A stretch of DNA of 64,000 nucleotides from Tidjanibacter sp. (GTDB taxonomy: Bacteria > Bacteroidota > Bacteroidia > Bacteroidales > Rikenellaceae), in the NCBI GenBank assembly GCA_045132795.1, contig JBGUSZ010000094.1:2338-66337 (forward strand). The letters run 5' to 3'. Of this stretch, positions 27,602 to 44,366 are shown piece after piece. Each line of letters opens with the position of its first letter. The first letter of the stretch is position 1. The position numbers and the translations under genes were made by a program. The notes under the pieces were generated by a model, which worked only from the letters and a program-made list of their open reading frames with translations, made no database searches and was not told where the DNA came from.

Positions 27602-28507
27602 CTATTTTGCAAAGTTGGGTGTGTCGAAAGAGAAACTCACACCGAGCCTAATCTGGTGGTAGGGCCAATCGACCAAGCCCACTTGGTGGCCCACTCGCAA
27701 CCACACATCTCCAACCCTCCACGACACATTGGTTTTGAGCGTCATCGGACTGTCGCCATCGCCTTCCCAACCAACATATCCGCCCAAGCAGGTGTCTATG
27801 GCAAGCCTATTGTTTGCTCTTGGGGGTCTATACGCCAGCAGAAGGCCATACATCACAGCGTCGTTTTGTCTTCCATTGTCGGTTTGCCAACACAGAAAAC
27901 CTCCGCTTGCAGCCACTCTCAGTCCGCTATTGCCCACCTGACGCCCTGCGGCCACGTCAAAGAAATAGCCGGGGGAGTCGTAGCAACGTCCGTCGGCCCA
28001 CTTGTTGGCCGAGGCGGTCTTTATTGCCGCCCTCACCGATACATCAATGCCGTGTTGTGCCTCATTAAATAGGTTTATGTCGGTGGAAACATAGACATCA
28101 CCCGAGTCCACACCCCTCAAATTACCCTTGTGTTGCAGGCGTCGCAGGGCATTCACTTCGGCCGAGGTATAGTATGACTCAACGATGGGCATCCACACCG
28201 TAAGGTTGGCCCTTGGGGTAAATAGCGGGGTGGTTAGGCGGACAAACACATCACCCGTGAGGTCGTCGCCCACGCGCCCCGTGGTTGTTCCCAAGAAGCA
28301 GTCGCCATAGAGCTCTACCTTCATTGTGGGCGAGGTTCGACCATCGAGCATATCGGGTACGGGGAAGGCGTTAGGGCCGAAGTAGGCAGGGCCAATCTTG
28401 CTTGGAATGGCATAGTTTGGCCCCACGATGGAGGTTTGTGCGTTGCTGTTTATGCAACACACTGCCAAACCAAGCATCAATACACACAAGGATACAAGTC
28501 GTTTCAT
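27602..28507 (-). CDS. Uncharacterised secreted, barrel-like protein (last gene of the pilus operon)
   Basis: Start placed at ATG 28507 (MKRLVSLCVLMLGLAVCCINSNAQ signal). It is 28 nt after the stop of the 1092-aa gene. The sequence is Gly/Asp/aromatic-rich with alternating segments and a near-terminal IRLGVSFSF. I recognise no family. Confidence 0.6.
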   Translation of the reverse strand: MKRLVSLCVLMLGLAVCCINSNAQTSIVGPNYAIPSKIGPAYFGPNAFPVPDMLDGRTSPTMKVELYGDCFLGTTTGRVGDDLTGDVFVRLTTPLFTPRANLTVWMPIVESYYTSAEVNALRRLQHKGNLRGVDSGDVYVSTDINLFNEAQHGIDVSVRAAIKTASANKWADGRCYDSPGYFFDVAAGRQVGNSGLRVAASGGFLCWQTDNGRQNDAVMYGLLLAYRPPRANNRLAIDTCLGGYVGWEGDGDSPMTLKTNVSWRVGDVWLRVGHQVGLVDWPYHQIRLGVSFSFDTPNFAK

Positions 28508-28535: not shown

Positions 28536-31500
28536 CTATAACAAGCCCTCGGCCTCCAACTCCTCCACCGAAGCATCACGTACACATCGTGGAACTCCAA
28601 CGCCATGGGTGTCCACCATAAAGATGTTGCCGCCCTGGATACCCCATCCAGCCTTGGGCTCTTTGGCTACACCAGGTTCTCCGAGGACACCAAACGAGTA
28701 GTAGGTGCGGCAGAAAGGTAGCCCCTCGTTAACATAATCCGGGAAATAGAGAAGCATCATTGCCAACTCGTTTTGGTTGGGAATACGGTAGCCCTCTGGG
28801 CAGTGGCCACTCAACACACTACTACCCACGTCCGAGATATACCTATTGTGGTTTACCCACGACATGTTATGGTTGTATGACGCAGGCAGAGTGGGTAGTG
28901 ATGCTACCTTTGTGGGTGCGATGTAGAATCTCTTGGAGAGTCGGTTGATTTCGCGGTTCTCATCACTGAACGGAAGGTCTATGGATGATTGGTCTCTAAG
29001 GGCCTTTTCGTCGAGCCTTACGCAGGTGATGGAGAGCTTTTCGGTGTCATACTCAACGTATGGGTCTGGCTCCTGTCTGAGGTCATAGCCCGTTGACATC
29101 GTTTCATTGGTGGTGCCGAGGTTGCGCACACAGCGTACCGTCCATTGATAGACACGTCCAACATTACCACCCGTGTTACTCCAACGCCACGAGTTGTACA
29201 AGTCGCCCGTGGAGCACAACTCTTCGGCCCACACGATGGTTGGGTTGTTGCTGTTGCTGCCATACATAGTGCTCGAAACAACGTGCTGCCTCCACACCGA
29301 GTTGTCCATACTCATTCGCTCCTCCGAGGTGCGGTGGTAGAGCCTCGAATCGAACTTCAAAAGGCCCTGGCCGATGGTCATACCCGTCAATTGACGGATG
29401 GCGGCAGTGTACCAACGAATCTCGTCTTGGTCAATCACACCATTGCCATTGTTGTCCCTGTTGCGGGTCATGCATGAGTAGCGTATTTTTTGGTATCCGT
29501 CTCGTAGCTGTGGCACCTCGTTTTCCACCTCCCAATTCACATAGTCGGTCCACTTGACATTGGCTTTGATGGCGGTGTTGCTGGTAAATAGATTCCACTC
29601 TTTGATGGAGTTGAGTCGTCCGTTATCCTGTGAGTCGTTTCCTCGGTTTTGGGCGGGATTTACATTTGGCTCTTCATACTTTGTGGTTGGAGCATTCTGG
29701 TCGTAGCGCCATATTCCACTATGCTCGTCTGTGTACTCAACACCCCACGCTGTGTGGAAAGAGGTGTTGGCTGGATTTGTGTCGTAGATGGACTGGATGG
29801 GCCTCTGCTGGATGGTAATTACAGAGCCCTTCGATGAACTCTCCTGGTCGTTGGACATAAAGGCGTCGCTCAAAATATAAAGATACCTATCCTGTGGTGC
29901 ATTTACATACTGTTTCCAGAAGTCGTCGGGAATCTCAGCGTTCGGGTCGCGAGGGTCGTAGTCGTAGTAGAACTCGTCCACAAAGGCAGTGACGCAAATC
30001 TTGGGGCCATTGGGGTCTTTGTCGAAGTCGCCCAGAGTGCTATACCCCTTGCTGCTGTCGTAGCCTTCAAGGAATAGGTCGTGCTGGGTTTTGATATATT
30101 TTACCAATTGGCTGACGTTCATAATGCCGTCGGGCGAATTCGTTTCGTGGTATTCGACATTGGTATACTCGCGGCGCAAGTCAGAGAAATAAACGCCATT
30201 GCTGTTCATCTTGTTGATGCGGAATTTCACCCACTTGTAGTCCAACCCAGGGGGGATAATATCATTGCCATCGGCGTCAATTTCGGGGCCACCTTCACCA
30301 AAGGGTGTGTTTACAAGCCAGGTAAGAGGTTTCTCTCCGCTGATATTTTTGGCGTGGAAGGTGATGGTGCGGGAAGAATAGTGGCAGTCGCAGTGGGCGA
30401 TCTCCTCCGTTGCTACAACAATATTACCGAAAGCTCCAGGTTGGGTTTCGCTTGGTTGGCGACCATTTTCATCCACCGACTCTCCACGTGCATCCACCTC
30501 AATGGCGATGCTGTTCAGACCGTTGATGGTAACCGTGTAGTGATAATATGTGTTGCGGTTTACGTTGAAGTTGTTCACCTGCTCTTTGGTTTGTCCTTTG
30601 CCGAAGTTGCCGAGGTGGAGAAGGTATTGTACGTCACCACCAAGCTCTTGTCCGGCTTGCTCTCCTTCGAGCTCAGTTTTTACACTACACTTAATTAGGG
30701 CATAAGTCGATAGATTGTCGGCATACATAAAATCTCTGTTGCCATCTTCGTCAATGCCGTTAAGCCACCATGTGCCGTCTTGGTATTTTGTCTGTCGGCT
30801 GCGCTCATGGAAGGGGGCGTAGTTAGGCACGGCACTGTTGGTCAAAGGAATCTCCACTTTGGGACTACGGCGGTTTTCCAGCATATAGAACCACGCCTCA
30901 TAGGTACTTGTGGTACGTCCGGAGGCGGTAGTTTGCGAAACCTCATCAAAGGAGTTGAATCCATAGTCGAAGAAGTCCTCGGAGGAGGTCGTTGCGTCGT
31001 GTCCGGTAGTGGTGTCTGTTGCTCCCTCCACCCTCATCTCATAGGGGAATGCATAGCCTATCTTGGGGAGATTCACCACTTTTATTTCGGCATTGGTAAG
31101 ACTCATAACCTTGTCGCCCTGTTTGAGAGTGATGTGAATCTTGGCATCCATGTGGTGGAGTTGGACGGTGGCGGTATTGTTGGTGTTATTTCCTGTGAAG
31201 ATTTTAACCACACCATTGTTGTCTTTGTGAATCTTCACATTTTCCAACACACCACTCATTTGCAGAGCGCCATTGCGTGAGAGGGTTTGTTGAATCATAC
31301 GTCCTCTGATGTTGAGAAGCTCCTGCTCGTCTTGTACCTGTGAGAGTCGGTCGGAGGAGATATCGACCATGTCGGCATCAAGATTAGTGATAATGTAAAT
31401 TTGATAGGTATCCTCTTCGTCAACTGTGGTGTGGATGTTAACCACGCCGGCTGTTTTTGTGCCGGCCGATGAGGAGTTGTTCACAAACCAACAGTCTTCC

Positions 31501-31814
31501 GTGGCACTATGTACTTGTGCTTGAGATGTTTTGAGGTTGGTGTTGTCATAATACTGTGAGTAAACCCTGTCGCCAGACGAGTCGAAGAGAAATACAAACA
31601 TATTGAGCACTCGGTTCTCGTCGAGGTAGTTGAGGTTGTAGGCTCGGCTACGAACTTCGATGTTCTCCACTTGTGGAGGTGCAAAGTGGAGTATTATGCC
31701 ATTGGTGGTGGGATTTTTCACATCCTCACCCATAAGGTCGTTGGTACAGCCCATTAGTGTCAAACCACCAATCAGCAGTGCCATCAACATTGATATATAT
31801 TTGCTCTTTATCAT
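28536..31814 (-). CDS. Giant pilin-like lipoprotein: FimA-type pilin module plus two DUF1566/Fib_succ-like lectin-type modules (predicted tip adhesin)
   Basis: Start at ATG 31814 (MIKSKYISMLMALLIGGLTLMGC). Arg57-Ala58 site. FimA-like blocks (NRVLNMFVFLFD, VQLHHMDAKIHITL, VNRNTYYHYTVTINGL). Two modules end in WTVRCVRNLG and GVPRCVRDAS, the second also containing CPEGYRIPNQNELAMML. There is a DNNGNGVIDQDE Ca-loop-like motif. Confidence 0.75.
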   Translation of the reverse strand: MIKSKYISMLMALLIGGLTLMGCTNDLMGEDVKNPTTNGIILHFAPPQVENIEVRSRAYNLNYLDENRVLNMFVFLFDSSGDRVYSQYYDNTNLKTSQAQVHSATEDCWFVNNSSSAGTKTAGVVNIHTTVDEEDTYQIYIITNLDADMVDISSDRLSQVQDEQELLNIRGRMIQQTLSRNGALQMSGVLENVKIHKDNNGVVKIFTGNNTNNTATVQLHHMDAKIHITLKQGDKVMSLTNAEIKVVNLPKIGYAFPYEMRVEGATDTTTGHDATTSSEDFFDYGFNSFDEVSQTTASGRTTSTYEAWFYMLENRRSPKVEIPLTNSAVPNYAPFHERSRQTKYQDGTWWLNGIDEDGNRDFMYADNLSTYALIKCSVKTELEGEQAGQELGGDVQYLLHLGNFGKGQTKEQVNNFNVNRNTYYHYTVTINGLNSIAIEVDARGESVDENGRQPSETQPGAFGNIVVATEEIAHCDCHYSSRTITFHAKNISGEKPLTWLVNTPFGEGGPEIDADGNDIIPPGLDYKWVKFRINKMNSNGVYFSDLRREYTNVEYHETNSPDGIMNVSQLVKYIKTQHDLFLEGYDSSKGYSTLGDFDKDPNGPKICVTAFVDEFYYDYDPRDPNAEIPDDFWKQYVNAPQDRYLYILSDAFMSNDQESSSKGSVITIQQRPIQSIYDTNPANTSFHTAWGVEYTDEHSGIWRYDQNAPTTKYEEPNVNPAQNRGNDSQDNGRLNSIKEWNLFTSNTAIKANVKWTDYVNWEVENEVPQLRDGYQKIRYSCMTRNRDNNGNGVIDQDEIRWYTAAIRQLTGMTIGQGLLKFDSRLYHRTSEERMSMDNSVWRQHVVSSTMYGSNSNNPTIVWAEELCSTGDLYNSWRWSNTGGNVGRVYQWTVRCVRNLGTTNETMSTGYDLRQEPDPYVEYDTEKLSITCVRLDEKALRDQSSIDLPFSDENREINRLSKRFYIAPTKVASLPTLPASYNHNMSWVNHNRYISDVGSSVLSGHCPEGYRIPNQNELAMMLLYFPDYVNEGLPFCRTYYSFGVLGEPGVAKEPKAGWGIQGGNIFMVDTHGVGVPRCVRDASVEELEAEGLL

Positions 31815-31879
31815 AGTCAAAACATTTTTTCTTTCACAACCTTGTTCTTTTGCCCGACACATATAGCCGGGAAACGCCC

Positions 31880-33466
31880 TTAATCAAATGTGGCATCTCC
31901 GCCAAAGCCCTCCTTCCAGGGCACAACCTCGAAGTTAAAATAGCCATCTTCGGGGTTGAAGAAGACGTTCACACCCACCTTGATGTGTGCGTTGCGTCGT
32001 ACCTCTGTTAGCGGAATGGTTCGACCGCTCGAATCAATGATGGTCAACTGCGCCGAGTGTGTGGCTTCATTGTTATTCCACGGGGCTTTTGACCAGCCGG
32101 TTGCCTGCTTGGGGGTATAGAGGTACCACAGTTGGGCAGAGCTGGTTGTGGAGTTGGCATTACGACTACCTCGTGAAAGCACTGGAGAGTTGCCACTATT
32201 GGTGGTGAGGAAGTATTTGTAGTATCTTTCCGTGTAGGAAGAGCGAAACCAAGTGGTTTGGTTGTAGCTACCAAAGGCGAATGTTTCGGCATTGTTCACA
32301 TTGGAGTTCAACGAGAGCGAGGTGCTGCTACGCCTGAGGTAGAGTCCGGTGCCAACGTTTTGGATTGTTCCCGATGTGTTGCCAGAGAATACCCATAGGT
32401 AGTTGTCGTAGTTTGATGTGGGAGCCGTTTGCGAGAATGCCAACGTGTTATTGTTGACGTAGAGATATCGGTTGTTGCTCACATTGCGTACAAAGTAGTG
32501 GTGCCCAGCGATGATGTCGTAGTGACTCTTGGAGGTGTCGGGGCCGCCTGTTGTTGTGGTAATTTGGGGAACCTCTTTGATCTCCGCATTGCTACTGTCA
32601 GGGTTGAATGTATTATTGTCAAAGACGGCGACTTTCAACTCCATGGTGTAGTTGTCACTAGGGGCGCTACCCTCATAGATGTAATCGTCAAATAGAGTAA
32701 ATTCGCCACCATTGCTAATGTAATGTGAGTCGGAGTTAACCGCAAAACCATTCCAAGCAACACCGTTGGGGGCGGTGTAGTCGTGGTTAAAAAGGTATGT
32801 GTTGGAGGCGTTGAAGTTACCAAGCGAGAAGCCCGCCACAACAATCCTGTAATCTTCGTCCAACACGTGGTTGTGGACCACAATGCTAATCCTTGCGACC
32901 ACTCTCTCCACTTCGCCATCGATGATGTTGACACCTTGTTTGAACGACACGGGAATGACTGCTGTCATAGGCATACCTTTCTCTTCGGAGAATGCAGGGG
33001 TGTTGGTGCCGGAGAGTGCGCCCACCAGCGCATCTTTCAGGTTGGCCACAGATGCATCTTCGGCCATATAGCGACTCAAATCGATGGGGGTGTTGGCGAT
33101 GAGATAAATCTCGTGGTCACCCCTATCCAGATTCTCAAACGACACCAAGGCCTCTGTCCTGTCGGCGTTAAACTCAGCGCTACTCTCGTTGAGTGCGAGC
33201 CACTTGTGAACCACTCCGCTTTTGGTTATAAACACCGTGAGGTTGTTCATCTTCTCTCCGGCCATAGCGGTGCCGGTGCCACCTATGGCACGCCCCTCTT
33301 CTGCCACGAGAGGCGAACTTATGGAGATGACCACAGATGCATCCTTGGGGCCACCATTATTACCTCCGCCCACATCGGGCATCTCGGGGGTGATGTTGGT
33401 ACAGCCGACCAACATCATCAGTCCTGCGATTACGAGGGAGAATATGTTTCTGTTGTTACGAATCAT
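31880..33466 (-). CDS. Pilin-like lipoprotein with inserted beta-trefoil-like triple repeat
   Basis: Lipobox MLVGC (Cys22) and an Arg59-Ala60 site. FimA-like EVERVVARISIVV. Three roughly 40-aa pseudo-repeats at aa 315-452 end in YLWVF, ETFAF and QLWYLY. The C-terminal strand is PWKEGFGGDATFD. Confidence 0.7.
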   Translation of the reverse strand: MIRNNRNIFSLVIAGLMMLVGCTNITPEMPDVGGGNNGGPKDASVVISISSPLVAEEGRAIGGTGTAMAGEKMNNLTVFITKSGVVHKWLALNESSAEFNADRTEALVSFENLDRGDHEIYLIANTPIDLSRYMAEDASVANLKDALVGALSGTNTPAFSEEKGMPMTAVIPVSFKQGVNIIDGEVERVVARISIVVHNHVLDEDYRIVVAGFSLGNFNASNTYLFNHDYTAPNGVAWNGFAVNSDSHYISNGGEFTLFDDYIYEGSAPSDNYTMELKVAVFDNNTFNPDSSNAEIKEVPQITTTTGGPDTSKSHYDIIAGHHYFVRNVSNNRYLYVNNNTLAFSQTAPTSNYDNYLWVFSGNTSGTIQNVGTGLYLRRSSTSLSLNSNVNNAETFAFGSYNQTTWFRSSYTERYYKYFLTTNSGNSPVLSRGSRNANSTTSSAQLWYLYTPKQATGWSKAPWNNNEATHSAQLTIIDSSGRTIPLTEVRRNAHIKVGVNVFFNPEDGYFNFEVVPWKEGFGGDATFD

Positions 33467-33499: not shown

Positions 33500-34585
33500 T
33501 TACTGTATGTAGATGTCTTGGTTGGACTTCACCTCCGTCCACTCCTTGATGCTCACGGTGATGTTTGCCGAAGCGCCACTGAGTTCCATTGTAAAGACAT
33601 ATTTTTTGCCTGGTTCGAACGTTATTGCGGGGAGGTAGGCGCGGTGAATAGCCGTATTACCGGCTTGTGTTTTGAAGACGAACGACACTTGCTGCTCGTC
33701 AATGGTTTGAGGAATAGCGAAGATTACGCCATCACCATCGAATGCCACGGCGGCACTGCTGTCGGTCCTACCGATGGTCTTGGAGCCTTTCCACAGATAG
33801 TTGTTGTTGGAGGGCTGCGAGGGAGTCCAGTGTATGTTGGTTGCGGAGTCACCCTCCATCATCACACCATAGTATAACACGCCCGATGCGGCAATGCCGT
33901 CGATGTATGCTTCGGTGAGTATATCGGTGCTTTCGATTTTGTGTTTGATGCGGAATTGGAGCGCCGAGAGGACGTGCTGAAATTCCAACCTAACCTTATT
34001 CATACCCTCTGCGTCTTTTGTAGGGTTGCGGAGGGTGCGTGCGACCATCAGGTCGAACTTGTTGGTCTGGGTGTAATAGTTGAGTACCAACTTGGTTGCG
34101 TCGCTCATCGCCTGGATGTTCTCCGGAGGCAGGCCGTTGACGTGGTCGTTACCGTCGGCATTGAAAGGCAGGAAGGCCCTAAATTCGTGGTCGAGGAGTC
34201 GATGCCAAGGTCTGCGAGGCTCCTCGTCGGTGCCGCAGTTGTATTTGGAGGTGTCGCCATAGACCCATTGGTCGGTGTGTGTTGCGCCTTTGGCATCACG
34301 GAAGCTGGCCACATAGGAGAGAACCTCGGGGTGGTTGAGGAAGATGTTGTCGCCTGTTTCGTATCTGCCGAAGAGGGCAATCTCGTAGTTTTGGATATTG
34401 CTTGCTGCGATGGTAGTCGAGCCGGCACCGGCTCGTCCTGATTCGGAGAGCGGCAAAGCTTCGGTGGGAGCCTCAAAAGAGAGCACAGCCTCCCCTTCGG
34501 GTTGTGGAGTTTCAACCTCGGGAGTGTTGCAGGCTGCCAGTGCGAGTAGGGCCAGCACAAAGGCGTATGTTGTAAATTTCTTCAT
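33500..34585 (-). CDS. Fimbrillin (Mfa-like) family lipoprotein, paralogue 4
   Basis: Start at ATG 34585 (MKKFTTYAFVLALLALAAC). Arg51-Ala52 site. Blocks FRAFLPFNADG and LEFQHVLSALQFRI. C-terminus EWTEVKSNQDIYIQ. Confidence 0.75.
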   Translation of the reverse strand: MKKFTTYAFVLALLALAACNTPEVETPQPEGEAVLSFEAPTEALPLSESGRAGAGSTTIAASNIQNYEIALFGRYETGDNIFLNHPEVLSYVASFRDAKGATHTDQWVYGDTSKYNCGTDEEPRRPWHRLLDHEFRAFLPFNADGNDHVNGLPPENIQAMSDATKLVLNYYTQTNKFDLMVARTLRNPTKDAEGMNKVRLEFQHVLSALQFRIKHKIESTDILTEAYIDGIAASGVLYYGVMMEGDSATNIHWTPSQPSNNNYLWKGSKTIGRTDSSAAVAFDGDGVIFAIPQTIDEQQVSFVFKTQAGNTAIHRAYLPAITFEPGKKYVFTMELSGASANITVSIKEWTEVKSNQDIYIQ

Positions 34586-34641
34586 CTTTCTACCAAGATT
34601 TAGCAAAGTTTTTTCTTTTCTTTCAACAACCGCTCTCACCA

Positions 34642-35583
34642 CTAATCGTCGATGATGGCGCTAATGTTGTCGTGTAGGAAACCGAGGCTGTCAGTGTACA
34701 CTTTCAGGGAGTAGAGATATCCCACACCGGGTTGCCATGCAACGCTTTTGGACACCTCCAACACCTGGTTGGGGAGAGTTGCGTTTTCGTATACGAAATC
34801 GCACAGGAGTTTAATGTGGGCGGTGGTTACTTGTGGTAGCAACCACTTGGCCTCTCCGAGTAGTCGTACCTCGCCGGGCCTTACTGTTTCGCTGCCTTCG
34901 AACACCACCTGCTCACACAGCTCACCTGTTGTGGTCCACGACGGCTCGGGGAGAGAAGAGAAACTGCCTTGGTGCTGTAACTGTCCTATGGATATTTTGC
35001 GCACCACAACACTGATGTGGTCTGGTAGGTGGGGTATTACAGCGAACTGCACCGAGCAGAGAGCGTGCTTGAAGGGGATGGTGATGACACCTCCGCCCAC
35101 TCCGTATTCTTTGTCGCAGATGGGGCCTGCGAACATCAACTCCTCGGAGCCTTTGTTCAACACATCCACGTCGCTGAAAACCACGCCCTCTTTGTTGGAG
35201 AAGGAGGCCTGTGCGCTTGCGGGCGAGTAGGCTGCCACGGTGAGGATTTTCTCGGCGGGCCAAGCGTGTGGCGTTGAGGTGTTCCACTCTGTGCCGTTCC
35301 AACCAACCACCCCACGGTCTACCATCATATTGGCGTAGTCTTTGTCATATTTCCAGGTGAGGTTGTCGTCGAGCGCAGCCACCCACACTCCGAAGGAGTC
35401 ATCCTTGGAATAGATGTTGTGGTTGCCCTCACCACCCTCATCGGCTCTGGAGACCTGCGACATCATCACCACGGGCTCGTAGGAGATGGGGCCCAGGTCG
35501 GGCCACACCTTTTCGGTGCAACTGCTCAGTGCGAGTGCTGCCACGATAGCGAGGAGGGTGAATATGTTCTCTTTTTTCTTCAT
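34642..35583 (-). CDS. Fimbrillin (Mfa-like) family lipoprotein, paralogue 3
   Basis: Start at ATG 35583 (MKKKENIFTLLAIVAALALSSC). Arg46-Ala47 site. Blocks LTVAAYSPASA and IPFKHALCSVQFAV. Confidence 0.75.
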   Translation of the reverse strand: MKKKENIFTLLAIVAALALSSCTEKVWPDLGPISYEPVVMMSQVSRADEGGEGNHNIYSKDDSFGVWVAALDDNLTWKYDKDYANMMVDRGVVGWNGTEWNTSTPHAWPAEKILTVAAYSPASAQASFSNKEGVVFSDVDVLNKGSEELMFAGPICDKEYGVGGGVITIPFKHALCSVQFAVIPHLPDHISVVVRKISIGQLQHQGSFSSLPEPSWTTTGELCEQVVFEGSETVRPGEVRLLGEAKWLLPQVTTAHIKLLCDFVYENATLPNQVLEVSKSVAWQPGVGYLYSLKVYTDSLGFLHDNISAIIDD

Positions 35584-35611
35584 TTGTGCAGTTTGGTATT
35601 TGAGGTGTGGA

Positions 35612-36694
35612 CTACTCGATTTCGATGACAAAATCGCCACCGCTCATCCAGTCGGCGGAGATGATGGGCTTGTCAAACTCAATGAAACTTGTTGCACCCT
35701 TGTCCCAAGTGAGGTAGTATGTGTAGTAGTTTCCGCGTCCCCAATAGCTGTTGGTAAATTTCTGTCGGAGGTTGATGATTGCGCTCTCCACGGCTCTGTT
35801 GTAGGAGTCGTACCACTCCACGAATATTTCGGCCTGTGTACCCTCTATGCCCTCTTGGTGTGCTTGGGGAAGCAGGAGTGTGGGCTCGCCCACTTGGTTG
35901 GCGCTCATGTCCAGCACAATGCCATCGGTTCCTTCGTTGCGATAGTCATAGAGGACAATGGTTTTGGGTTGGGATTGTGCATCCCAACGCGATGTGGCGG
36001 AGGAGTAGTTGCCTCGGGTGAATATTTGTCGCAATTCCACACGTTGCAGGGTAATGTTGTATGTTCTGCCACCAACCACATACTCAGAGGCAAGGCCGGC
36101 GATGACCTGCACTTGGGAGAGGGTGTGACGGAACACGGTTGGGACACCTCCGAGGGTGTTGTCCTGGTGACGATCCTTCTGCCCTTCGCCCACCTCGGCA
36201 ATCATCAGGTCGATTCCTTTGGTTGCACTGTCATACGTATCCCATCCGGTTACGATTGTTGCATCATTGGCGGTGTTGATGGTGATGTTGGTTATCTGGT
36301 TGCCGTTGTTGTCGGCCCAGGGGGAGTGTGCGAAGAAGGTGAGGGTGTGGGTGTAGGGCCAGCGTTGTTTGGGGTTGGCCACCCACGCTCCGAGGCTCTC
36401 GTTCCACTCCACCTTGACACCTGCAAAATACTCCTCTGCGAGGTCGTTCTTGCTCTGGTCCCAGAAGTAGTCGCGTGGCATCCAGTAGGCAGTGGCGGCA
36501 AATGGGCGGTCGGTGGGGTAGACAAGTTGTTTACCCGCACGCACCACGTCGGGAAGCCCCACTACGGTCTGAAATCCGATAGTGTTGTCCTCCTGTGGTG
36601 TCGGCTCGGGGCCGAAATTGACACACCCCGCCAAGGCGAGGGCCAGGGCCATTGCCGCGAGTAGTGCCGATATGTGCGCTCTGGTGTTTAACAT
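35612..36694 (-). CDS. Fimbrillin (Mfa-like) family lipoprotein, paralogue 2
   Basis: Preferred start is ATG 36694 (MLNTRAHISALLAAMALALALAGC), with an alternative ATG at 36736. Arg52-Ala53 site. Blocks LTFFAHSPWAD and TVFRHTLSQVQVIA. C-terminus DWMSGGDFVIEIE. Confidence 0.75.
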   Translation of the reverse strand: MLNTRAHISALLAAMALALALAGCVNFGPEPTPQEDNTIGFQTVVGLPDVVRAGKQLVYPTDRPFAATAYWMPRDYFWDQSKNDLAEEYFAGVKVEWNESLGAWVANPKQRWPYTHTLTFFAHSPWADNNGNQITNITINTANDATIVTGWDTYDSATKGIDLMIAEVGEGQKDRHQDNTLGGVPTVFRHTLSQVQVIAGLASEYVVGGRTYNITLQRVELRQIFTRGNYSSATSRWDAQSQPKTIVLYDYRNEGTDGIVLDMSANQVGEPTLLLPQAHQEGIEGTQAEIFVEWYDSYNRAVESAIINLRQKFTNSYWGRGNYYTYYLTWDKGATSFIEFDKPIISADWMSGGDFVIEIE

Positions 36695-36894
36695 CCTTAC
36701 AACCAAATCTCTGTTTTCTTCTTTTTTCCCCCTCATGCCTATTCTATATGTCGTGTGTGGGCACAACACACAAAATCTTGTGTTTGTCTGTTTGTCTGTT
36801 TGTGCCCCGGGGGAGTAGTCGGCTCCCTCCGAGGCTTGGTTGGCGCAGGAGGCTTGTGTGCCTTTGCGCCTTGGGGGTGTTCTATACCACCGTA

Positions 36895-37917
36895 TTAGAT
36901 TTCGATGATGTAGGAGTTTGTGTCGGACTGATCCCAACCCTCTTCGGTGGGAGCCCAAATAATCTGCTCAACATCACCGATGGTGAGGTTGTAGCTAATC
37001 ACCTCGTTGATACCCCAACGCTGGTCTACAGTATCGAGGTCGTGGAGCGAGATTTTAACATTCACGGTCTCGGTAGCGTGGCCGCTCTCTACGGTGTAGG
37101 TAACCTCCAGCTGGCTGGCCGAGGTGAATGCCTGAGGAATAACATACTTGTGGTCCAGGGGCACAACAGCGGTTGCGTTAGTTACGGTGATGGCCTTTGA
37201 GGGGTCGGTAATGCCGTCAAACAACACACAGCTCTCGCTGCTGGGGCCGGCAGCCACAGTCCAATAGTCGTTCACACCGCTGGTGCCGGGAACGTGGTTG
37301 TAGGGCATAGTGTAGGTACCGGAGTGGTAAACACCATTGAGTTTCACCTGGGTCAGAGTGATGGTACGATCATCATCGGCAGCCTTGGTGATACCAACCT
37401 TGATTTGGGTGAGTTTGTGGCGGAACACGGTGTTCACGGGGTTACCCTTTGCCTCTTTCACGATGTCGGCAACCATAAAGTCTACGTTTTTGTTGGTCTC
37501 CACGCTGAAGTCGGCAAACACATAGTTCCTGTCTGCATCCCAGCTGCGGGTAGCGGAGATGCCATCAGGAGCATAGGCGAAGAAGGTCAGGCTACCCTTG
37601 GCAGGCCAATAGTAGGCGGTGCTGGTGGTCCAAACCTCCTCGCCACCGAGCGACCTCTTCTCAACTTTCTCGTTGGCGAAGTATTGTTCGGCGGTGGTGT
37701 GTACACCGGCCCAAGTCTCACCCTCATTCAAGAGGAAGGCAGCTGCCACAAAGTGGTTGTGGCTGGTGTAGGCGGCACGGCCATCGGTCTGCAAACCCGA
37801 AACGGTTGCAAAGTCGATCCTCTCACCCTGTGCAAAGTTACCACTGAAATCAACCTCGTTCTTCACGCAGCTTGCAAGTGCTACACATGCTGCTGCAATA
37901 GCGATAAGTTTTTTCAT
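36895..37917 (-). CDS. Fimbrillin (Mfa-like) family lipoprotein, paralogue 1 (candidate major stalk subunit)
   Basis: Lipobox ALASC (Cys17) and an Arg47-Ala48 site. Blocks LTFFAYAPDG and TVFRHKLTQIKVGI. C-terminus EGWDQSDTNSYIIEI. It is set apart by long untranslated regions on both sides. Confidence 0.75.
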   Translation of the reverse strand: MKKLIAIAAACVALASCVKNEVDFSGNFAQGERIDFATVSGLQTDGRAAYTSHNHFVAAAFLLNEGETWAGVHTTAEQYFANEKVEKRSLGGEEVWTTSTAYYWPAKGSLTFFAYAPDGISATRSWDADRNYVFADFSVETNKNVDFMVADIVKEAKGNPVNTVFRHKLTQIKVGITKAADDDRTITLTQVKLNGVYHSGTYTMPYNHVPGTSGVNDYWTVAAGPSSESCVLFDGITDPSKAITVTNATAVVPLDHKYVIPQAFTSASQLEVTYTVESGHATETVNVKISLHDLDTVDQRWGINEVISYNLTIGDVEQIIWAPTEEGWDQSDTNSYIIEI

Positions 37918-38076: not shown

Positions 38077-39096
38077 TTACAATTCCAAGTCGAAGTGCTC
38101 CTCTTTCCAATCCTCCATTTCGGGCTTAAAGCCACCACCTGCCGTGGGAGGCGTGGAGGGTTTGTCGATGGTGATAACCTCATCCAGCAACAACCAGTTG
38201 TGGTCCCTGCATTCGGGGCTATCAAACAGGGCCGAAATGTTGAAATCCCTATTCTCAACACGACCGTCCACCGTGTTGATGTTGAACGACACCCACAACT
38301 CGTTGTTTGAGTGGTCAATGTGGCCAAAGGAGTTGAACACGCTGCACAGCACCGCCGCGCCCTTGTCGTCGCTCTTCTGCAAGGAGAAATAGATGGCCGT
38401 TTCGGGAATGTCCACCCTCTGGCGGCTACCAAGCATATTACTTCCCGCCATACCCGTGAGGATGGCCTGCGCACTCGACACCCACTCCAAGCCCTCAACT
38501 TTCACTTGCAAGTAGAAGGTCTCGGTTACGGGTGTGGCCGTAGTCTTGATGGTATAGAGGTCGTCGTGCCAGGGGATGCTCCTTTTGGCATCGGTGGCCA
38601 CCCATAGTAGGTTTGGCTGGTGGCGGATGTCCACAGGCTCGTCAGCTCGAGTGTTGAAACGACTCGCCAGCACCTCCGAAACCGATTGGGTGTAGGCCTC
38701 AATGGTGGGGTGGCTGTAATCGTTGCGGATGTAGGTCGAAGGGGTATCGAAGTTGTAGATGACCATCTCGTAGTCGCCGGGCAGGATGCCCACACGGCCC
38801 GAAACGACGTGGCGACCCTCCGAGTCGGTCGATACGTTGCTGATGTAGCTCTCGCCCGCAATCCTATCCTTGCCGGGCTCATAGAACAACACCCTCAGCA
38901 TCTCGGGGTCGGTTTGTTGGGGTTGTATCTTGGGATTATATATGTCGCACGTTACGTTGTGCATACCCTCGTCGTCGATGACAACCTGCAACTCGGCGGT
39001 GAAGCTGGGGTCCAACAGAGGCCTGCGCTCACAGCCAAACGCCGCAAGCAACCCCATCACAAGGAGTATGGCCCTATGTCTTAACGCCCCTCTCAT
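38077..39096 (-). CDS. FimB/Mfa2-like (DUF5119-like) fimbrial anchor candidate
   Basis: Lipobox AAFGC (Cys22). There is no Arg-Ala dipeptide in the roughly 65 residues after the Cys. The C-terminal GGGFKPEMEDWKEEHFDLEL tail resembles anchor-type subunits. The start overlaps the upstream stop (TAATG). Confidence 0.65.
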   Translation of the reverse strand: MRGALRHRAILLVMGLLAAFGCERRPLLDPSFTAELQVVIDDEGMHNVTCDIYNPKIQPQQTDPEMLRVLFYEPGKDRIAGESYISNVSTDSEGRHVVSGRVGILPGDYEMVIYNFDTPSTYIRNDYSHPTIEAYTQSVSEVLASRFNTRADEPVDIRHQPNLLWVATDAKRSIPWHDDLYTIKTTATPVTETFYLQVKVEGLEWVSSAQAILTGMAGSNMLGSRQRVDIPETAIYFSLQKSDDKGAAVLCSVFNSFGHIDHSNNELWVSFNINTVDGRVENRDFNISALFDSPECRDHNWLLLDEVITIDKPSTPPTAGGGFKPEMEDWKEEHFDLEL

Positions 39097-40343
39097 TACC
39101 TTTGGCCTCCTTTCGTCTTAATGGTGAGGGGGACAACAAGCGAAATCTCCGCCTTGGTGGGACCAACCCAGTGAAGTCGGCCGGCGTTGAACTTATCCCT
39201 GATGAGGTCTTGCCAGTCGTCCGTGGGGACATAGTGGCGGTAGGGGATGCTGGCGTAGCCCACCGAGAGTGAGAACTCGATGTTCATTCGTTTGCCCAGC
39301 GGTGCCGAGTAGCCATAAGTGAGGCCGGCACTCCAAAACTCGCCCTGATAGCAAGCCCAGGTGTTGGCCTGAAAGTCGAACTTTCCACTCATAGCATAGG
39401 CTCCGAGGAAGTGACCCACAAGCCTATCCCTGCCGGGGAAGGTGTCGCTGCGAGGAACGGGTTTGGGCGCAAACCACCATCTCGCCTCGCCACCAATGGA
39501 GAGCAGCTGCAAGCAGTAGCGGTTGTTCTCCGTTAGCCACCAGGGGCAGATGTGGTTATAAACCAGCGAGAAGCGGTCGCCAATGGGTGCCTCCACTGCA
39601 AAGTTCACAACCGTAGCCACGTCATAGAGCGCGTTAGTTTTCAGTGCCAAGATGGTCTTACGGGCAGGCCTTAGGTCGGGCAGGGGTCTAAATTGCAGGT
39701 GGGAGGGAAGGGTTATTTCGGATGTTACATCCTTTCGGGGTGCGGTGGTGGGAAGTGCCGCCACGTGCTGCGACCAATAGATAACAAGTGTGGTCGCTGT
39801 TCGCAGGTAGGGAAGGTGGTGGCGGTCGATGTAGGAATATGCTTGACCTTTGCGCAACTTCATCAGTTGGCGCATCTTCTTATCGGGGTGTACACCCTTA
39901 CGACGCAAAATCTGCAAAACCTCTTTCTTAAACGGAACCTTCGAGTCGGCCTCCACGCGTTCGATAAGGCCGGTGAAGTCCTCACCCAGAGGCTCCTCCC
40001 TCATCTGTTCCAGCCCCAAACTTTTATAGCGTTTTAGCAACCAATATTTGGTAGTACCGGCACGGCGGGCCGAAAGTTTCTGGTTGTAGCGAAGAGGTCC
40101 CTCGGGCGATGCGTAGGCAACAATGGAGACGCTGTCGATATACTTTCCGTTTGCCTCAAAGAAGTTGTCGAGGGATTGGATGGTTTGGCGGTTGGAGAGG
40201 TAGCTCTCGTCGAGGACATATTTGTCGTGGCGGAAATAGAGAGTTGCAGACATTGTGTGGGACTCCTTCTTTTGGGCCCAAAGTGAAGTCGCGCACACAA
40301 TTGTGGCGAGCAACACAACTATCCTTCTGCAATAACTTTTCAT
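39096..40343 (-). CDS. Outer-membrane protein: OmpA-like (DUF3868-like) N-terminal region + DUF3575-like barrel
   Basis: Signal peptide ending LWAQ. An OmpA-like block (SVSIVAYASPEGPLRYNQKLSARRAGTTKYWL). The C-terminal half has DUF3575-type strands (ILALKTNALYDVATVVNFAVEAPIGDRFSLVYNHICPWW...GGEARWWF...EFSLSVGYASIPYRHY). Confidence 0.72.
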   Translation of the reverse strand: MKSYCRRIVVLLATIVCATSLWAQKKESHTMSATLYFRHDKYVLDESYLSNRQTIQSLDNFFEANGKYIDSVSIVAYASPEGPLRYNQKLSARRAGTTKYWLLKRYKSLGLEQMREEPLGEDFTGLIERVEADSKVPFKKEVLQILRRKGVHPDKKMRQLMKLRKGQAYSYIDRHHLPYLRTATTLVIYWSQHVAALPTTAPRKDVTSEITLPSHLQFRPLPDLRPARKTILALKTNALYDVATVVNFAVEAPIGDRFSLVYNHICPWWLTENNRYCLQLLSIGGEARWWFAPKPVPRSDTFPGRDRLVGHFLGAYAMSGKFDFQANTWACYQGEFWSAGLTYGYSAPLGKRMNIEFSLSVGYASIPYRHYVPTDDWQDLIRDKFNAGRLHWVGPTKAEISLVVPLTIKTKGGQR

Positions 40344-40733: not shown

Positions 40734-41636
40734 TTAATCACTAACACTCTGGCGCCACTGCTGTGGAGTCATTCCCGTGTAGCGCTTGAAATAGCGGCAG
40801 AAGAACGAAGGAGTTGCAAAGTTCATCCTATCGCTCACAATGGTGGTCGACAGGCTCGCATTGAGCAACAGTCGTTTGGCATTTTTGATTACCATCTCCG
40901 CAATCATATCGGAAGGAGTGATGCCCGTAACCCTCTTGATTTTGCCCGAAAACTGCTTGGCGCTCATACCAAACAACTCGGCGTAGTATTCCACATCGCG
41001 GTGCTCGAACGAGCTAGCTGTAAGCATCATACTAAACCTCTTGGCCAACTGTTCGCTAGCAGAGCTCTCCTTCACGGCGAGGTTGCGACGCAGGAAAATG
41101 TCAACCAACTCCGAGCGCAGAATGGCCAATGTGTTGCGGTCAATGTCGGCACGATTGTAGTTGCGATAGTTGGTCGAGCTGGCGGCAATATATTCCATCA
41201 GCGCAGTCATCACCCTATTTTCCTGTTTCAGCAACGAGATTACAGGGCATTGCCTTAGGCGGGGGAAGGTGTTTACAATACTGCTCACCGATGCCTCTTC
41301 GTTGATACGTCCTACGATGGTTGATGCCAAAAAGTCGGGCGATACGGTGGTGAAACGGCAGTAGGTTCCGGCAAAGATGATGAGCATCTGTCCGGCCCTA
41401 ACAATATGGGAGGTTCCATCAACAGAAACCTGTACGCTACCGGCCTTGCATACCCACATTATCACTCCGTCTTTGAACATGATGGAGCGGTCCATCATCG
41501 AACTTGTCATCGCATCGCCACCGGCTATCTCGAAGTAGTGAAACGAAGGCTCAGGACGCAATTGCAGACTCTTGACCATAAAGTCAAAGTCGAAAATTCG
41601 GTTAGGGTTTTGGGAATTATTGTGCTGTGTCGGCAT
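40734..41636 (-). CDS. AraC-family transcriptional regulator
   Basis: 300 aa. The C-terminal double-HTH region is (YYAELFGMSAKQFSGKIKRVTGITPSDMI...FATPSFFCRYFKRYTGMTPQQWR). The N-terminal region is a cupin-like sensor. Confidence 0.9.
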   Translation of the reverse strand: MPTQHNNSQNPNRIFDFDFMVKSLQLRPEPSFHYFEIAGGDAMTSSMMDRSIMFKDGVIMWVCKAGSVQVSVDGTSHIVRAGQMLIIFAGTYCRFTTVSPDFLASTIVGRINEEASVSSIVNTFPRLRQCPVISLLKQENRVMTALMEYIAASSTNYRNYNRADIDRNTLAILRSELVDIFLRRNLAVKESSASEQLAKRFSMMLTASSFEHRDVEYYAELFGMSAKQFSGKIKRVTGITPSDMIAEMVIKNAKRLLLNASLSTTIVSDRMNFATPSFFCRYFKRYTGMTPQQWRQSVSD

Positions 41637-41899: not shown

Positions 41900-42763
41900 T
41901 TATCGCTCAATTTGACCACCCACAATGTCGAGTAATTCGGTAGTGATGGCCTGTTGGCGTTGCTTGTTGTATTCGAGTGCGAGCTCACCGATAAGCTTGT
42001 CGGCATTGTCGGTGGCGGCCTGCATTGCAATCATCCTCGCTGCGTGTTCGGAGGCCAAAGCCGAGAGGGCCACGGAGTAGAGTTTAAGGGTGATTTGGCG
42101 GGGCACAATCTCCGCAATAAGTTGCTCCCTATCGGGCTCCAAGATATACTCCGTGGAGAGAGAGTCGCTACCCTCCGAGCACTCCATTTCGATTGGTAGA
42201 AGCTGCTCACAAACAAGCTTTTGAGTGCCTGCCGAGAGAAATTTGTGGTAGATAAGTTCAACCCTATCCGTATCCCCCGCAAGGTATTCTTTCATCATTC
42301 GTTGGGCCATATCGGAAGCCATCTCATAGGTGGGCCTGTCGGCCAATACTTCGTGGCCCTCCTCGCACTCAAATCCCTCACGACACACCCCCTTGGCAAG
42401 TTGTTCGCCAACGGCAATAATGCTCACTTTAATACCCTTGGCTTCCCACTCTCGGGCACTCTTTGTGGTGCGCCTTACCACGTTGCCATTGTAGGCTCCA
42501 CAGAGTGTTCCGTTGGATGCAAAACCCACAAGCGTAACTCTTTCTATGGTGCGTGGCGTGGCCAAAGCAACGGGGGTGCTTTCCTCGTTACCAACCAGAT
42601 GAGAGGTGATTTTTTGCAACTCGTCGGAGTAGGGCACAAGTGCACCAATGGCCCTTTGGGTGCGGTGCAGTTTTGCTGCCGCAACCATCTTCATAGCCGA
42701 GGTGATCTTGCGCGTGCTACGCACCGATGCAATTCTCTCTTTTATCTCCCTGAGCGATGCCAC
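41900..42763 (-). CDS. atpG: F1 ATP synthase subunit gamma
   Basis: MASLREIKERIASVRSTRKITSAMKMVAAAKL N-terminus and a C-terminal ITTELLDIVGG. It uses a GTG start codon. Confidence 0.95.
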   Translation of the reverse strand: MASLREIKERIASVRSTRKITSAMKMVAAAKLHRTQRAIGALVPYSDELQKITSHLVGNEESTPVALATPRTIERVTLVGFASNGTLCGAYNGNVVRRTTKSAREWEAKGIKVSIIAVGEQLAKGVCREGFECEEGHEVLADRPTYEMASDMAQRMMKEYLAGDTDRVELIYHKFLSAGTQKLVCEQLLPIEMECSEGSDSLSTEYILEPDREQLIAEIVPRQITLKLYSVALSALASEHAARMIAMQAATDNADKLIGELALEYNKQRQQAITTELLDIVGGQIER

Positions 42764-42782
42764 GATTGTTGTGTGTTGTTGA

Positions 42783-44366
42783 TTATGAGTTTATTGCAGC
42801 AATGGTTTCGGCTGCTGTTTTTTCTATTCCGGAGATGACCTCCTCGTTGATAATACCCGCCTTTAAGCACCCCAACACATCCTCCGAGTGGGTTGCTCGC
42901 AGCAGTTCCAAGAAGTGCCTCTCAAAGGCTCTCACTTGCTCGGTCGGAAGCTCTTTGAGGAGTCCGTTCACACCACAGTAGAGCACCGCAATCTGCTCCT
43001 CTACGGGCATGGGTGCATACTGTGGTTGGATGAGCAGCTCGGTGTTTTTGTGGCCCTTGTCGATAACGTAGGCCGTAACGGGGTCCAAATCGCCGCCAAA
43101 CTTCGTAAAGGCCTCTAACTCACGATATTGCGCTTGGTCTATTTTGAGCGTACCGGCCACCTTCTTCATCGCCTTGATTTGTGCATTGCCACCCACACGA
43201 CTCACCGAGATACCAACATTGATAGCTGGTCTTACACCCTGATTGAAGAGGTCGCTTTCGAGAAATATCTGACCGTCGGTAATGGAAATCACATTGGTTG
43301 GAATGTAGGCCGAAACGTCGCCTGCCTGGGTTTCGATGATGGGTAGTGCTGTCAGTGAGCCTCCGCCCTTGACCTTGCCACGCAGGCACTCCGGAAGGTC
43401 GTTCATCTTCTCGGCCACCGAGTCGTTGGCGATGATTTTGGCTGCCCTTTCCAAGAGTCGGGAGTGGAGATAGAAGATGTCGCCTGGGTAGGCCTCCCTG
43501 CCCGAAGGACGGCGCAGGATTAGCGACACCTCACGATAGGAGACAGCCTGCTTCGAGAGGTCGTCATAGACCACCAATGCGTGGCGGCCCGTATCTCGGA
43601 ACCACTCGCCAATGGCCGCACCTGCAAAGGGTGCAAAATATTGCAAAGCCGCAGGGTCCGAGGCTGTGGCTGCCACCACTACCGTATAGTCCATTGCCCC
43701 CTTTTCGCGGAGGGTGTTGACGATGTTGGCCACCGTTGAACCCTTCTGTCCCACGGCAACATAGATGCAATAGACGGGCTTGCCGTTGAGGTAGTTATCC
43801 CTCTGGTTGATGATGGTGTCGATGGCAATGGCGGTCTTGCCCGTTTGGCGGTCGCCGATGATAAGCTCCCTCTGGCCCCTACCGATGGGAATCATTGCAT
43901 CCACCGCTTTGAGGCCCGTTTGAAGGGGCTCGTTTACGGGTTGGCGGAAGATAACACCGGGGGCTTTGCGCTCCAACGGCATTGAGAACTTCTCGCCCTC
44001 AATATCGCCCCTGCCATCAAGGGTTTCGCCCAGAGGGTTAATCACCCTTCCCACCACATTGTCGTTGACCTCAATCGACACAATCCTCTCGGTGCGCCTT
44101 ACCATTTGTCCCTCTTTGATGTGGTCGGTGGGGCCCAGCAGTACGGCACCCACATTGTCCTCTTCGAGGTTCATCACAACGCCCGACACGCCACCCTCAA
44201 ACTCCAACAATTCGCCACTCTCGGCATTGTTGAGTCCGTAGATGCGTGCCACACCGTCGCTCACCTGCAACACGGTGCCCACCTCTTCAAATTTTACTGT
44301 GGTGTCGATGCCGGCAAGTTGTTCTTGCAAAATGCGGCTCACCTCGCTTGGTCTTATCTCTGCCAT
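42783..44366 (-). CDS. atpA: F1 ATP synthase subunit alpha
   Basis: 527 aa. Walker A GDRQTGKT. Canonical alpha-subunit sequence throughout. Confidence 0.98.

Follow-up and report, generated by a model that had tools for sequence, protein, structure and literature searches.

We analysed a 64,000-nucleotide stretch of Tidjanibacter sp. DNA (contig JBGUSZ010000094.1 of assembly GCA_045132795.1; hereafter the window), with attention to a minus-strand gene at 28536..31814 that encodes a protein of 1092 amino acids (aa). The product is probably the subunit that sits at the distal end (tip) of a type V pilus and displays an adhesive head, in a Tidjanibacter-like Rikenellaceae gut bacterium. The first ~445 residues are a lipoprotein-type type V pilin, to which a head of about 650 residues is fused, and the fusion belongs to a widespread family and is no one-off. 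A preliminary description, made from the letters of the sequence, had proposed a tip subunit carrying two lectin-type binding heads. The tip-adhesin part of that proposal is reasonable and is now better supported, and the gene stands last in a conserved pilus operon, but of the two lectin heads only one found support.

The open reading frame spans 28536..31862 on the minus strand, and translation from the ATG at 31814 gives the 1092-residue product, which starts with MIKSKYISMLMALLIGGLTLMGC. Translation also confirmed that the frame, the six motifs and the two module ranges of the preliminary description are real and lie where it had placed them: NRVLNMFVFLFD at aa 67-78, VQLHHMDAKIHITL at aa 217-230, VNRNTYYHYTVTINGLNSIAIEV at aa 418-440, YQWTVRCVRNLG at aa 889-900, CPEGYRIPNQNELAMML at aa 1005-1021 and HGVGVPRCVRDAS at aa 1070-1082, with the modules at aa 779-898 and aa 984-1081. 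The motifs are not chance occurrences: in an alignment of 64 sequences they occupy columns that vary little or not at all (C895, R897, C1005, G1008, R1010, E1016, R1076 and D1080). The full-length AlphaFold model had a mean predicted local distance difference test score (pLDDT) of 85 and a predicted template modelling score (pTM) of 0.84. The gene and the parts of its product are as follows.

28536..31814, minus strand: the whole gene, a pilin-head fusion of 1092 aa (open reading frame and translation; stop codon 28536-28538).
31746..31814, minus strand: lipoprotein signal peptide with the lipobox LMGC, aa 1-23 (sequence and conservation of Cys23).
31644..31745, minus strand: pro-region, comprising the A1 strand (aa 40-45) and a loop to the basic residue R57 (V-x-T-[KR]-A), a putative maturation cleavage site (conservation and model).
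30480..31643, minus strand: two-domain type V pilin body, aa 58-445, with the DUF4906 region in its second domain (Foldseek, and Pfam on homologues).
29655..30479, minus strand: middle domain, aa 446-720, mixed beta/alpha and of no known family (pLDDT ~90; median identity 0.48).
29100..29654, minus strand: module 1, aa 721-905, ending in VRCVRNLG (EF-hand Pfam models and cysteine co-conservation).
29421..29456, minus strand: canonical 12-residue EF-hand loop within module 1, D787-N-N-G-N-G-V-I-D-Q-D-E798 (conservation, Pfam and PDB profile).
28539..29099, minus strand: module 2, aa 906-1092, a divergent Fib_succ_major / Lcl_C (DUF1566) domain with CPEGYRIPNQNEL and RCVRD (Pfam on homologues).

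The identity of the N-terminal part as a type V pilin, already claimed in the preliminary description, was borne out by structure comparison. Foldseek matched this part to the PDB entries 4rdb, 5dhm, 5nf4, 4gpv, 3up6, 3r4r and 4qdg, all with a probability of 1.00 and with E-values from 3e-10 to 2e-6, and recovered the two-domain beta-sandwich fold of these pilins. The first places were taken by Mfa4 (4rdb, E=3e-10; 5dhm, E=2e-9) and Mfa3 (5nf4, E=2.7e-9), followed by fimbrial proteins of Bacteroides and Parabacteroides. Mfa4 was also on top when a sequence profile of the family was compared with the PDB, at a marginal E-value of 0.014. At the sequence level, the pilin kinship emerged from the homologues: P_gingi_FimA matched 29 of 45 and DUF4906 matched 17 of 45, the latter mapping to aa 316-417 of the homologue P0111, that is, to the second pilin domain and not to the extension. 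The window protein scored below both Pfam cut-offs (15 bits against 21.4 for FimA; 13.6 against 27.7 for DUF4906), while P0093 reached 33.6 bits on FimA and P0111 reached 32.1 bits on DUF4906. Pfam and NCBIfam searches with the whole protein returned nothing at E<=0.01, and a phmmer search of PDB sequences returned no match. The von Willebrand factor A (vWA) domain and the type IX secretion C-terminal domain of Mfa5-type proteins had no Pfam match in this protein or in the 45 homologues.

Features of export and processing are retained across the family. The lipobox cysteine (Cys23) is retained in 77 of 81 sequences, and the remaining four have a gap at this position. Residue 57 is K or R in 64/64 sequences, within the motif V-x-T-[KR]-A, and in the full-length model residues 51-58 form a loop with pLDDT <50 directly after the predicted strand at aa 40-45. 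Because the basic residue is conserved throughout, position 57 fits a maturation cleavage site, which would be analogous to those of FimA, Mfa1 and the experimentally tested BfrT. At the other end of the protein, the chain stops 12 residues past the second RCVR motif and has no W-x(8-12)-hydrophobic tail, as had been noted before; two of the stalk paralogues encoded in the same operon end in ...DWMSGGDFVIEIE and ...EGWDQSDTNSYIIEI. The tail after the last RCV[RK] has a median length of 5 residues among 80 relatives, and the family as a whole therefore lacks a C-terminal donor strand.

The position of the gene is in keeping with a tip subunit. Almost every related locus with enough flanking sequence shows one operon order on a single strand: DUF3575, DUF5119, two to four fimbrillins, a homologue of a 528-residue pilin and, last, the pilin-head fusion. 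Homologues of the 528-residue pilin lie upstream of the fusion gene in ~70 of 80 related loci, mostly directly adjacent to it, and this pilin is likely to be the partner that docks into the fusion protein. In the window it is encoded as follows.

31880..33466, minus strand: 528-aa pilin directly upstream, with the donor-like C-terminal tail VVPWKEGFGGDATFD (synteny; weak P_gingi_FimA match, E=0.0011).

An insert at about aa 320-470 of this pilin shows a three-fold pattern (YLWVF, TTWFR, QLWYLY). By eye it suggested a beta-trefoil lectin, a guess that received no Pfam support and was set aside.

Taken together, these features are consistent with a mechanism in which the precursor would be exported as a lipoprotein through Cys23 and moved to the cell surface. 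A protease would cut after R57, removing the lipid together with the A1 strand and opening a groove in the pilin body (aa 58-445), and this groove would be filled by the donor strand at the C-terminus of the following subunit, for which the 528-residue pilin is the likeliest candidate. Because it has no donor strand of its own, the fusion protein could only cap the filament. Its rigid head of ~650 residues would project outward and mediate adhesion to a glycan or protein ligand, with the terminal module 2 most likely setting the specificity. All steps past lipoprotein export, including cleavage, tip position, Ca2+ binding and ligand binding, are read from homology and conservation.

The same export signal would also serve a surface lipoprotein adhesin that does not polymerise, with a pilin-like stalk that is lipid-anchored or released and a head shown from the outer membrane. 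Precedents exist for such an arrangement, since the related C-lectin protein LdtA of Legionella is a surface lipoprotein (PMC5758913), and the pilin-related Bacteroides proteins BovT and BfiT, which are targets of diversity-generating retroelements (DGRs), are not incorporated into pili (bioRxiv 10.1101/2024.11.15.621889). However, position 57, in a disordered loop that follows the A1 strand, is basic throughout the family, and a protein that is not processed would have little reason to keep it so. The strict linkage to genes of anchor and stalk type, together with a pilin directly upstream that bears a donor strand, also speaks against it, and we consider this alternative unlikely.

The head was described previously as two tandem modules. 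We found instead that its ~650 residues form three units in the predicted structure (aa 446-720, 721-905 and 906-1082), the first of which, a domain of 275 residues, had been overlooked. When modelled alone, the 652-residue head had a pLDDT of 89.4 and a pTM of 0.89. Median identity to the query differed among the units (0.48 for the middle domain, 0.50 for module 1 and 0.33 for module 2, with 0.35 for the first pilin domain), so that module 2 is the most variable unit of the head, and the middle domain and module 1 are the best conserved. The lectin-like fold that had been anticipated for the extension was not confirmed: a fold search with the 652-residue head found no match at E<=1e-3 in the PDB or BFVD. 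C-type lectins appeared far below this level, with dectin-1 (2bpe) at E=0.52 and KLRG1 (3ff9) at E=0.59 (target-normalised TM-scores of 0.39-0.43). The top matches of that search were immunoglobulin (Ig)-like receptors and lectin domains of chaperone-usher adhesins, which we set aside at E>=0.02 and low probability.

The middle domain belongs to no recurring Pfam family among 54 homologues, and has no significant sequence match in the PDB. It holds many invariant polar residues, including a C475-D476-x-H478 motif. Comparison of its profile with the PDB yielded LapG (4fgo, E=0.6) and a zinc-protease domain (E=0.5), both at chance level; these were rejected, as the conserved residues do not occur in the order of a LapG-type protease.

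Module 1 is marked by a single EF-hand-like loop embedded in another fold, as judged from conservation and profile matches. Loop positions 1, 3, 5, 8 and 12 are conserved in 81/81 sequences, and the pattern D-x-[DN]-x-[DN]-G-x-I-[DE]-x-x-E is satisfied by D787, N789, N791, G792, I794, D795 and E798. The only recurring Pfam type is the EF-hand, with EF-hand_1 matching 48 of 75 homologous modules weakly (best E=3.4e-4), and a profile of module 1 found only EF-hand loops of the calmodulin type among PDB sequences. A paired helix-loop-helix EF-hand domain was not found: the module has one loop, and P0093, the one homologue for which a bit score was recorded, scored 16.8 bits on EF-hand_1 against a cut-off of 25.4. 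Two cysteines, Cys781 and Cys895, are co-conserved in 80 of 81 sequences. The invariance of the loop suggests Ca2+-dependent stability or binding.

Module 2 is akin to the Fib_succ_major and Lcl_C (DUF1566) domains. Fib_succ_major matched 44 of 72 homologous modules (E<0.1, best 4.4e-8) and Lcl_C matched 12 of 72. The module of the window protein itself falls below the Fib_succ_major gathering threshold (E=0.13; 12.9 bits against 33.9), as does that of P0093, the one homologue for which a bit score was recorded, at 30.9 bits, and the kinship is visible at the level of the family only. A profile of module 2 found nothing among PDB sequences, even at E<=10. Its invariant or near-invariant residues are C1005, P1006, G1008, Y1009, R1010, P1012, E1016, R1076, C1077 and D1080, with Cys1005 and Cys1077 occurring together in 76 of 81 sequences. 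These residues follow what we take to be the motif of the domain family, C-P-x-G-[WY]-R-[LI]-P-x-x-x-E-[LW] with a terminal R-C-V-[RK]-D and paired cysteines, which we used as a lead and not as a test.

The preliminary description had taken both modules as lectin-type. The motif is complete in module 2, but module 1 resembles Fib_succ_major/Lcl_C solely at its RCVR end, and its homologues match neither of these families. Profile-profile alignment joined the two modules over just 14-16 residues around RCVR, with a probability of 31-55%, whether the EF-hand loop was kept or removed. Because module 1 obtains EF-hand matches only and aligns to module 2 over so short a segment, the presence of two tandem lectin-type modules is not shown, although a kinship to Fib_succ_major/DUF1566 stands for module 2. 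In the model, the two modules share a similar order of secondary structure (a short strand at R-W-Y or Y-R-I, a helix, and three to four strands ending in the CVR strand), and a common fold of modules 1 and 2 is plausible for this reason. A C-type-lectin-like fold could not be confirmed from the predicted structures.

Several points weigh against a lectin-bearing pilus tip. The window protein reaches no Pfam gathering threshold, its head yields no significant match in the fold search (C-type lectins at E~0.5), and the metatranscriptome signal from the locus is thin and could include carried-over DNA. We infer the filaments, the cleavage, the tip location and the ligand of this family, and we know of no protease for the cut at R57 in this lineage. 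In addition, the best-conserved parts of the head are the middle domain and module 1, with the invariant polar residues D476, H478, E614, R643, D656 and E693; the conserved function may therefore reside in these two units, whether or not it is lectin-like. It is possible, though doubtful, that the functional core is the unannotated pair of the middle domain (aa 446-720) and the EF-hand module (aa 721-905) and not the terminal Fib_succ_major-type module. Module 2, which varies, would then be an add-on, as would the additional Ig-like domains of the longer relatives.

Going further along this line, the middle domain and the EF-hand module might together form an enzyme that depends on Ca2+, or carry some other activity that is not lectin-like, at the pilus end. 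Candidates would be hydrolysis or processing of host or microbial surface polymers, with module 2 serving only for targeting. The wealth of invariant D, H, E, R, S and Q residues, the invariant Cys475-Asp476-x-His478, the strong conservation of both units, and the fact that no known binding-domain family matches either of them, are all compatible with this idea. However, a ligand pocket or a domain interface would be just as likely to conserve polar residues, the searches turned up neither a catalytic family nor a catalytic fold, and the enzyme-like PDB matches were those rejected above at chance level. An enzyme at the pilus tip appears quite improbable to us.

The resemblance of the architecture to DUF1566/Fib_succ_major targets of DGRs, which are sometimes fused to P_gingi_FimA (PMC5758913), and to BfrT and BthT, would suggest a DGR variable protein with a hypermutated C-terminal C-lectin module, but this is highly unlikely, given that no part of the gene is copied elsewhere in the 64-kb window, that no template-like repeat of the module-2 DNA occurs within ~10 kb in 76 related loci, and that the columns of the C-terminal motifs do not vary within the family; the lack of a template repeat essentially excludes this reading for the window. 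We retain the adhesive tip subunit as the best explanation of the gene.

The family is large and taxonomically broad. A homologue search covering 5.8 billion protein clusters found 243 homologues in a collection at 90% identity, nearly all of them full-length (~1020-1140 aa), and 360 related loci were present among the 185,579 species genomes that were scanned. The closest relatives, at 88-90% identity, are in metagenome-assembled genomes (MAGs) of Tidjanibacter, and further relatives come from Alistipes, Muribaculaceae, Cryptobacteroides and unclassified Bacteroidales. When the head alone was compared with 1.84 billion representatives at 50% identity, 989 matched at E<=1e-3 and 252 at E<=1e-30, mostly with the same architecture. 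Longer relatives (1466-2307 aa; P0180, P0228 and P0199) append Big_2, PKD-like and F5/8-type-C-like domains after the head, which is common among adhesins. The preliminary description had placed the fusion outside the canonical fim/mfa systems. With 360 loci in species genomes it is not unusual, and similar fusions have already been published (PMC5758913; bioRxiv 10.1101/2024.11.15.621889).

Two Bacteroidales MAGs carry three copies each (L012, L041 and L055 in one; L011, L045 and L057 in the other), indicating paralogous expansion within genomes. Relatives were also found on 11 IMG/VR contigs classed as viral (L081-L091), at 26-28% identity over aa 357-1080. The relative on L081 (4942-8058), the contig examined closely, lies in the same kind of pilus operon, beside genes that look phage-like to the eye, none of which matched Pfam. 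In this relative the WRLPNQRELALM motif is canonical, while module 1 lacks the cysteine and closes with VRAVRNLG.

Near-identical DNA is present in bovine gut, pig gut and manure metagenomes, and the gene belongs to a livestock-gut Bacteroidales bacterium. Short metatranscriptome contigs (>=95% identity) cover pieces of the gene and of the operon, which is weak evidence of transcription.

The remaining genes of the operon, and the regulator upstream of it, are the following.

33500-34642, 34642-35640, 35612-36958 and 36895-37917, minus strand: four genes for fimbrillin-like lipoproteins, stalk or adaptor subunits (Mfa_like_1 on two of them; paralogy by tblastn).
38077-39096, minus strand: DUF5119 lipoprotein (Pfam; conserved second gene of the operon).
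39096-40343, minus strand: DUF3575 outer-membrane protein with an OmpA-like N-terminus (Pfam; conserved first gene of the operon).
40734..41636, minus strand: AraC-family regulator, upstream of the operon (Pfam HTH_18 and HTH_AraC).

All four fimbrillin-like products have a lipobox, and three end in the W-x(8-12)-hydrophobic tail, which the product of 34642-35640 lacks. The DUF3575 and DUF5119 genes head the operon in nearly all loci with enough flank; in the window, the product of 39096-40343 matched DUF3575 at E=6e-31, with a weak OmpA-like N-terminal region (E=7e-4). Compared with the nearest Tidjanibacter genomes, both genes are mostly 87-90% identical. The first fimbrillin after DUF5119 (36895-37917), which is probably the major shaft subunit, is just 57-59% identical to its counterparts in the Tidjanibacter loci L001-L003, whereas the fusion protein is 88-90% identical, and this difference suggests a variable shaft and a conserved tip. 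The AraC-family regulator is found upstream in L001-L003 and in L008 as well.

Downstream of the fusion gene, a 301-residue signal-peptide protein without a Pfam match (27602-28507, minus) begins 28 nt past the stop codon. It is conserved in this position only in one close Tidjanibacter genome, L003. A strong terminator-like hairpin (26514-26483, minus) follows the next gene after it, and the short spacing together with this hairpin indicates that the transcription unit may reach past the fusion gene. A scan for promoters and terminators gave counts at chance level, and the sigma-70 consensus is unsuited to Bacteroidota. Upstream of the AraC gene, two open reading frames at 41900-44366 (minus) read from their translations as the gamma and alpha subunits of ATP synthase, an ordinary chromosomal context with no sign of a mobile element.

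Bacteroidales of the gut and the mouth have type V pili as their main fimbriae, and to our knowledge few of these pili have a known receptor or tip adhesin. The family described here is abundant (360 loci in species genomes, ~990 clusters at 50% identity, and as many as three copies in one genome) and has a fixed place at the end of its operon. If its members are tip adhesins, they offer a tractable way to learn what Rikenellaceae, Muribaculaceae and their relatives adhere to in the gut. They would also show how specificity is varied in a lineage without DGRs, through exchange or divergence of the terminal module. Such a family extends the current picture of type V pili and does not change it.

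A few named homologues, from Tidjanibacter or Bacteroidales, carry the label "DUF4906 domain-containing protein". The Tidjanibacter relatives of that name, 50-59% identical, are full-length and have the same architecture and operon position. The name covers just a 73-residue Pfam model in the second pilin domain, and is silent on the head and on function. In our literature searches DUF4906 was named in just two papers, once in each, and no functional study of the family turned up.

Among characterized systems, the nearest pilin bodies are those of Mfa3 and Mfa4, tip/accessory pilins in the Mfa type V fimbria of P. gingivalis (5nf4, 4rdb and 5dhm), which, like the fusion protein, are made as lipoprotein precursors, have a two-domain pilin body, and are encoded downstream of shaft and anchor genes. 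Mfa3 and Mfa4 also lack the C-terminal linker (polymerisation) strands that Mfa1 and Mfa2 have (PMC8512630). However, they comprise ~300-330 residues, bear no appended head, and are only 13-14% identical to the fusion protein in the fold alignments. The operon differs as well, in that it starts with DUF3575 and DUF5119 and has no Mfa5-type vWA protein.

The terminal module has its counterparts in Fib_succ_major (PF09603/TIGR02145) and Lcl_C/DUF1566 (PF07603), with which module 2 has in common the motif C-P-x-G-[YW]-R-x-P-x-x-x-E-L, the ending R-C-V-R-D and two cysteines. These domains are frequent in lipoproteins and are treated as C-lectin-type ligand-binding domains in DGR targets, among which fusions of FimA-type pilins to DUF1566/Fib_succ_major C-lectins were noted in 2017 (PMC5758913).

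The closest parallel in overall design is provided by BfrT, BthT and BunT of Bacteroides, which have been shown or predicted to be tip adhesins of type V pili (bioRxiv 10.1101/2024.11.15.621889). Like the fusion protein, they combine a pilin with a C-terminal head (of C-lectin type in theirs) through an additional connecting domain, carry a lipobox cysteine and an arginine (cleavable in theirs), and are encoded by the last gene of an operon for anchor and stalk pilins. They differ in being diversified by DGRs and located on conjugative elements, whereas the fusion protein has no template repeat and its head motifs are invariant. Compared by description and not by sequence, its head is much larger, with three units that include an EF-hand module. 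Tip adhesins that join a pilin to a C-lectin are thus already known. What the present family adds to them is a domain of no known family and an operon headed by DUF3575 and DUF5119, and the middle domain together with the EF-hand module is its most interesting point.

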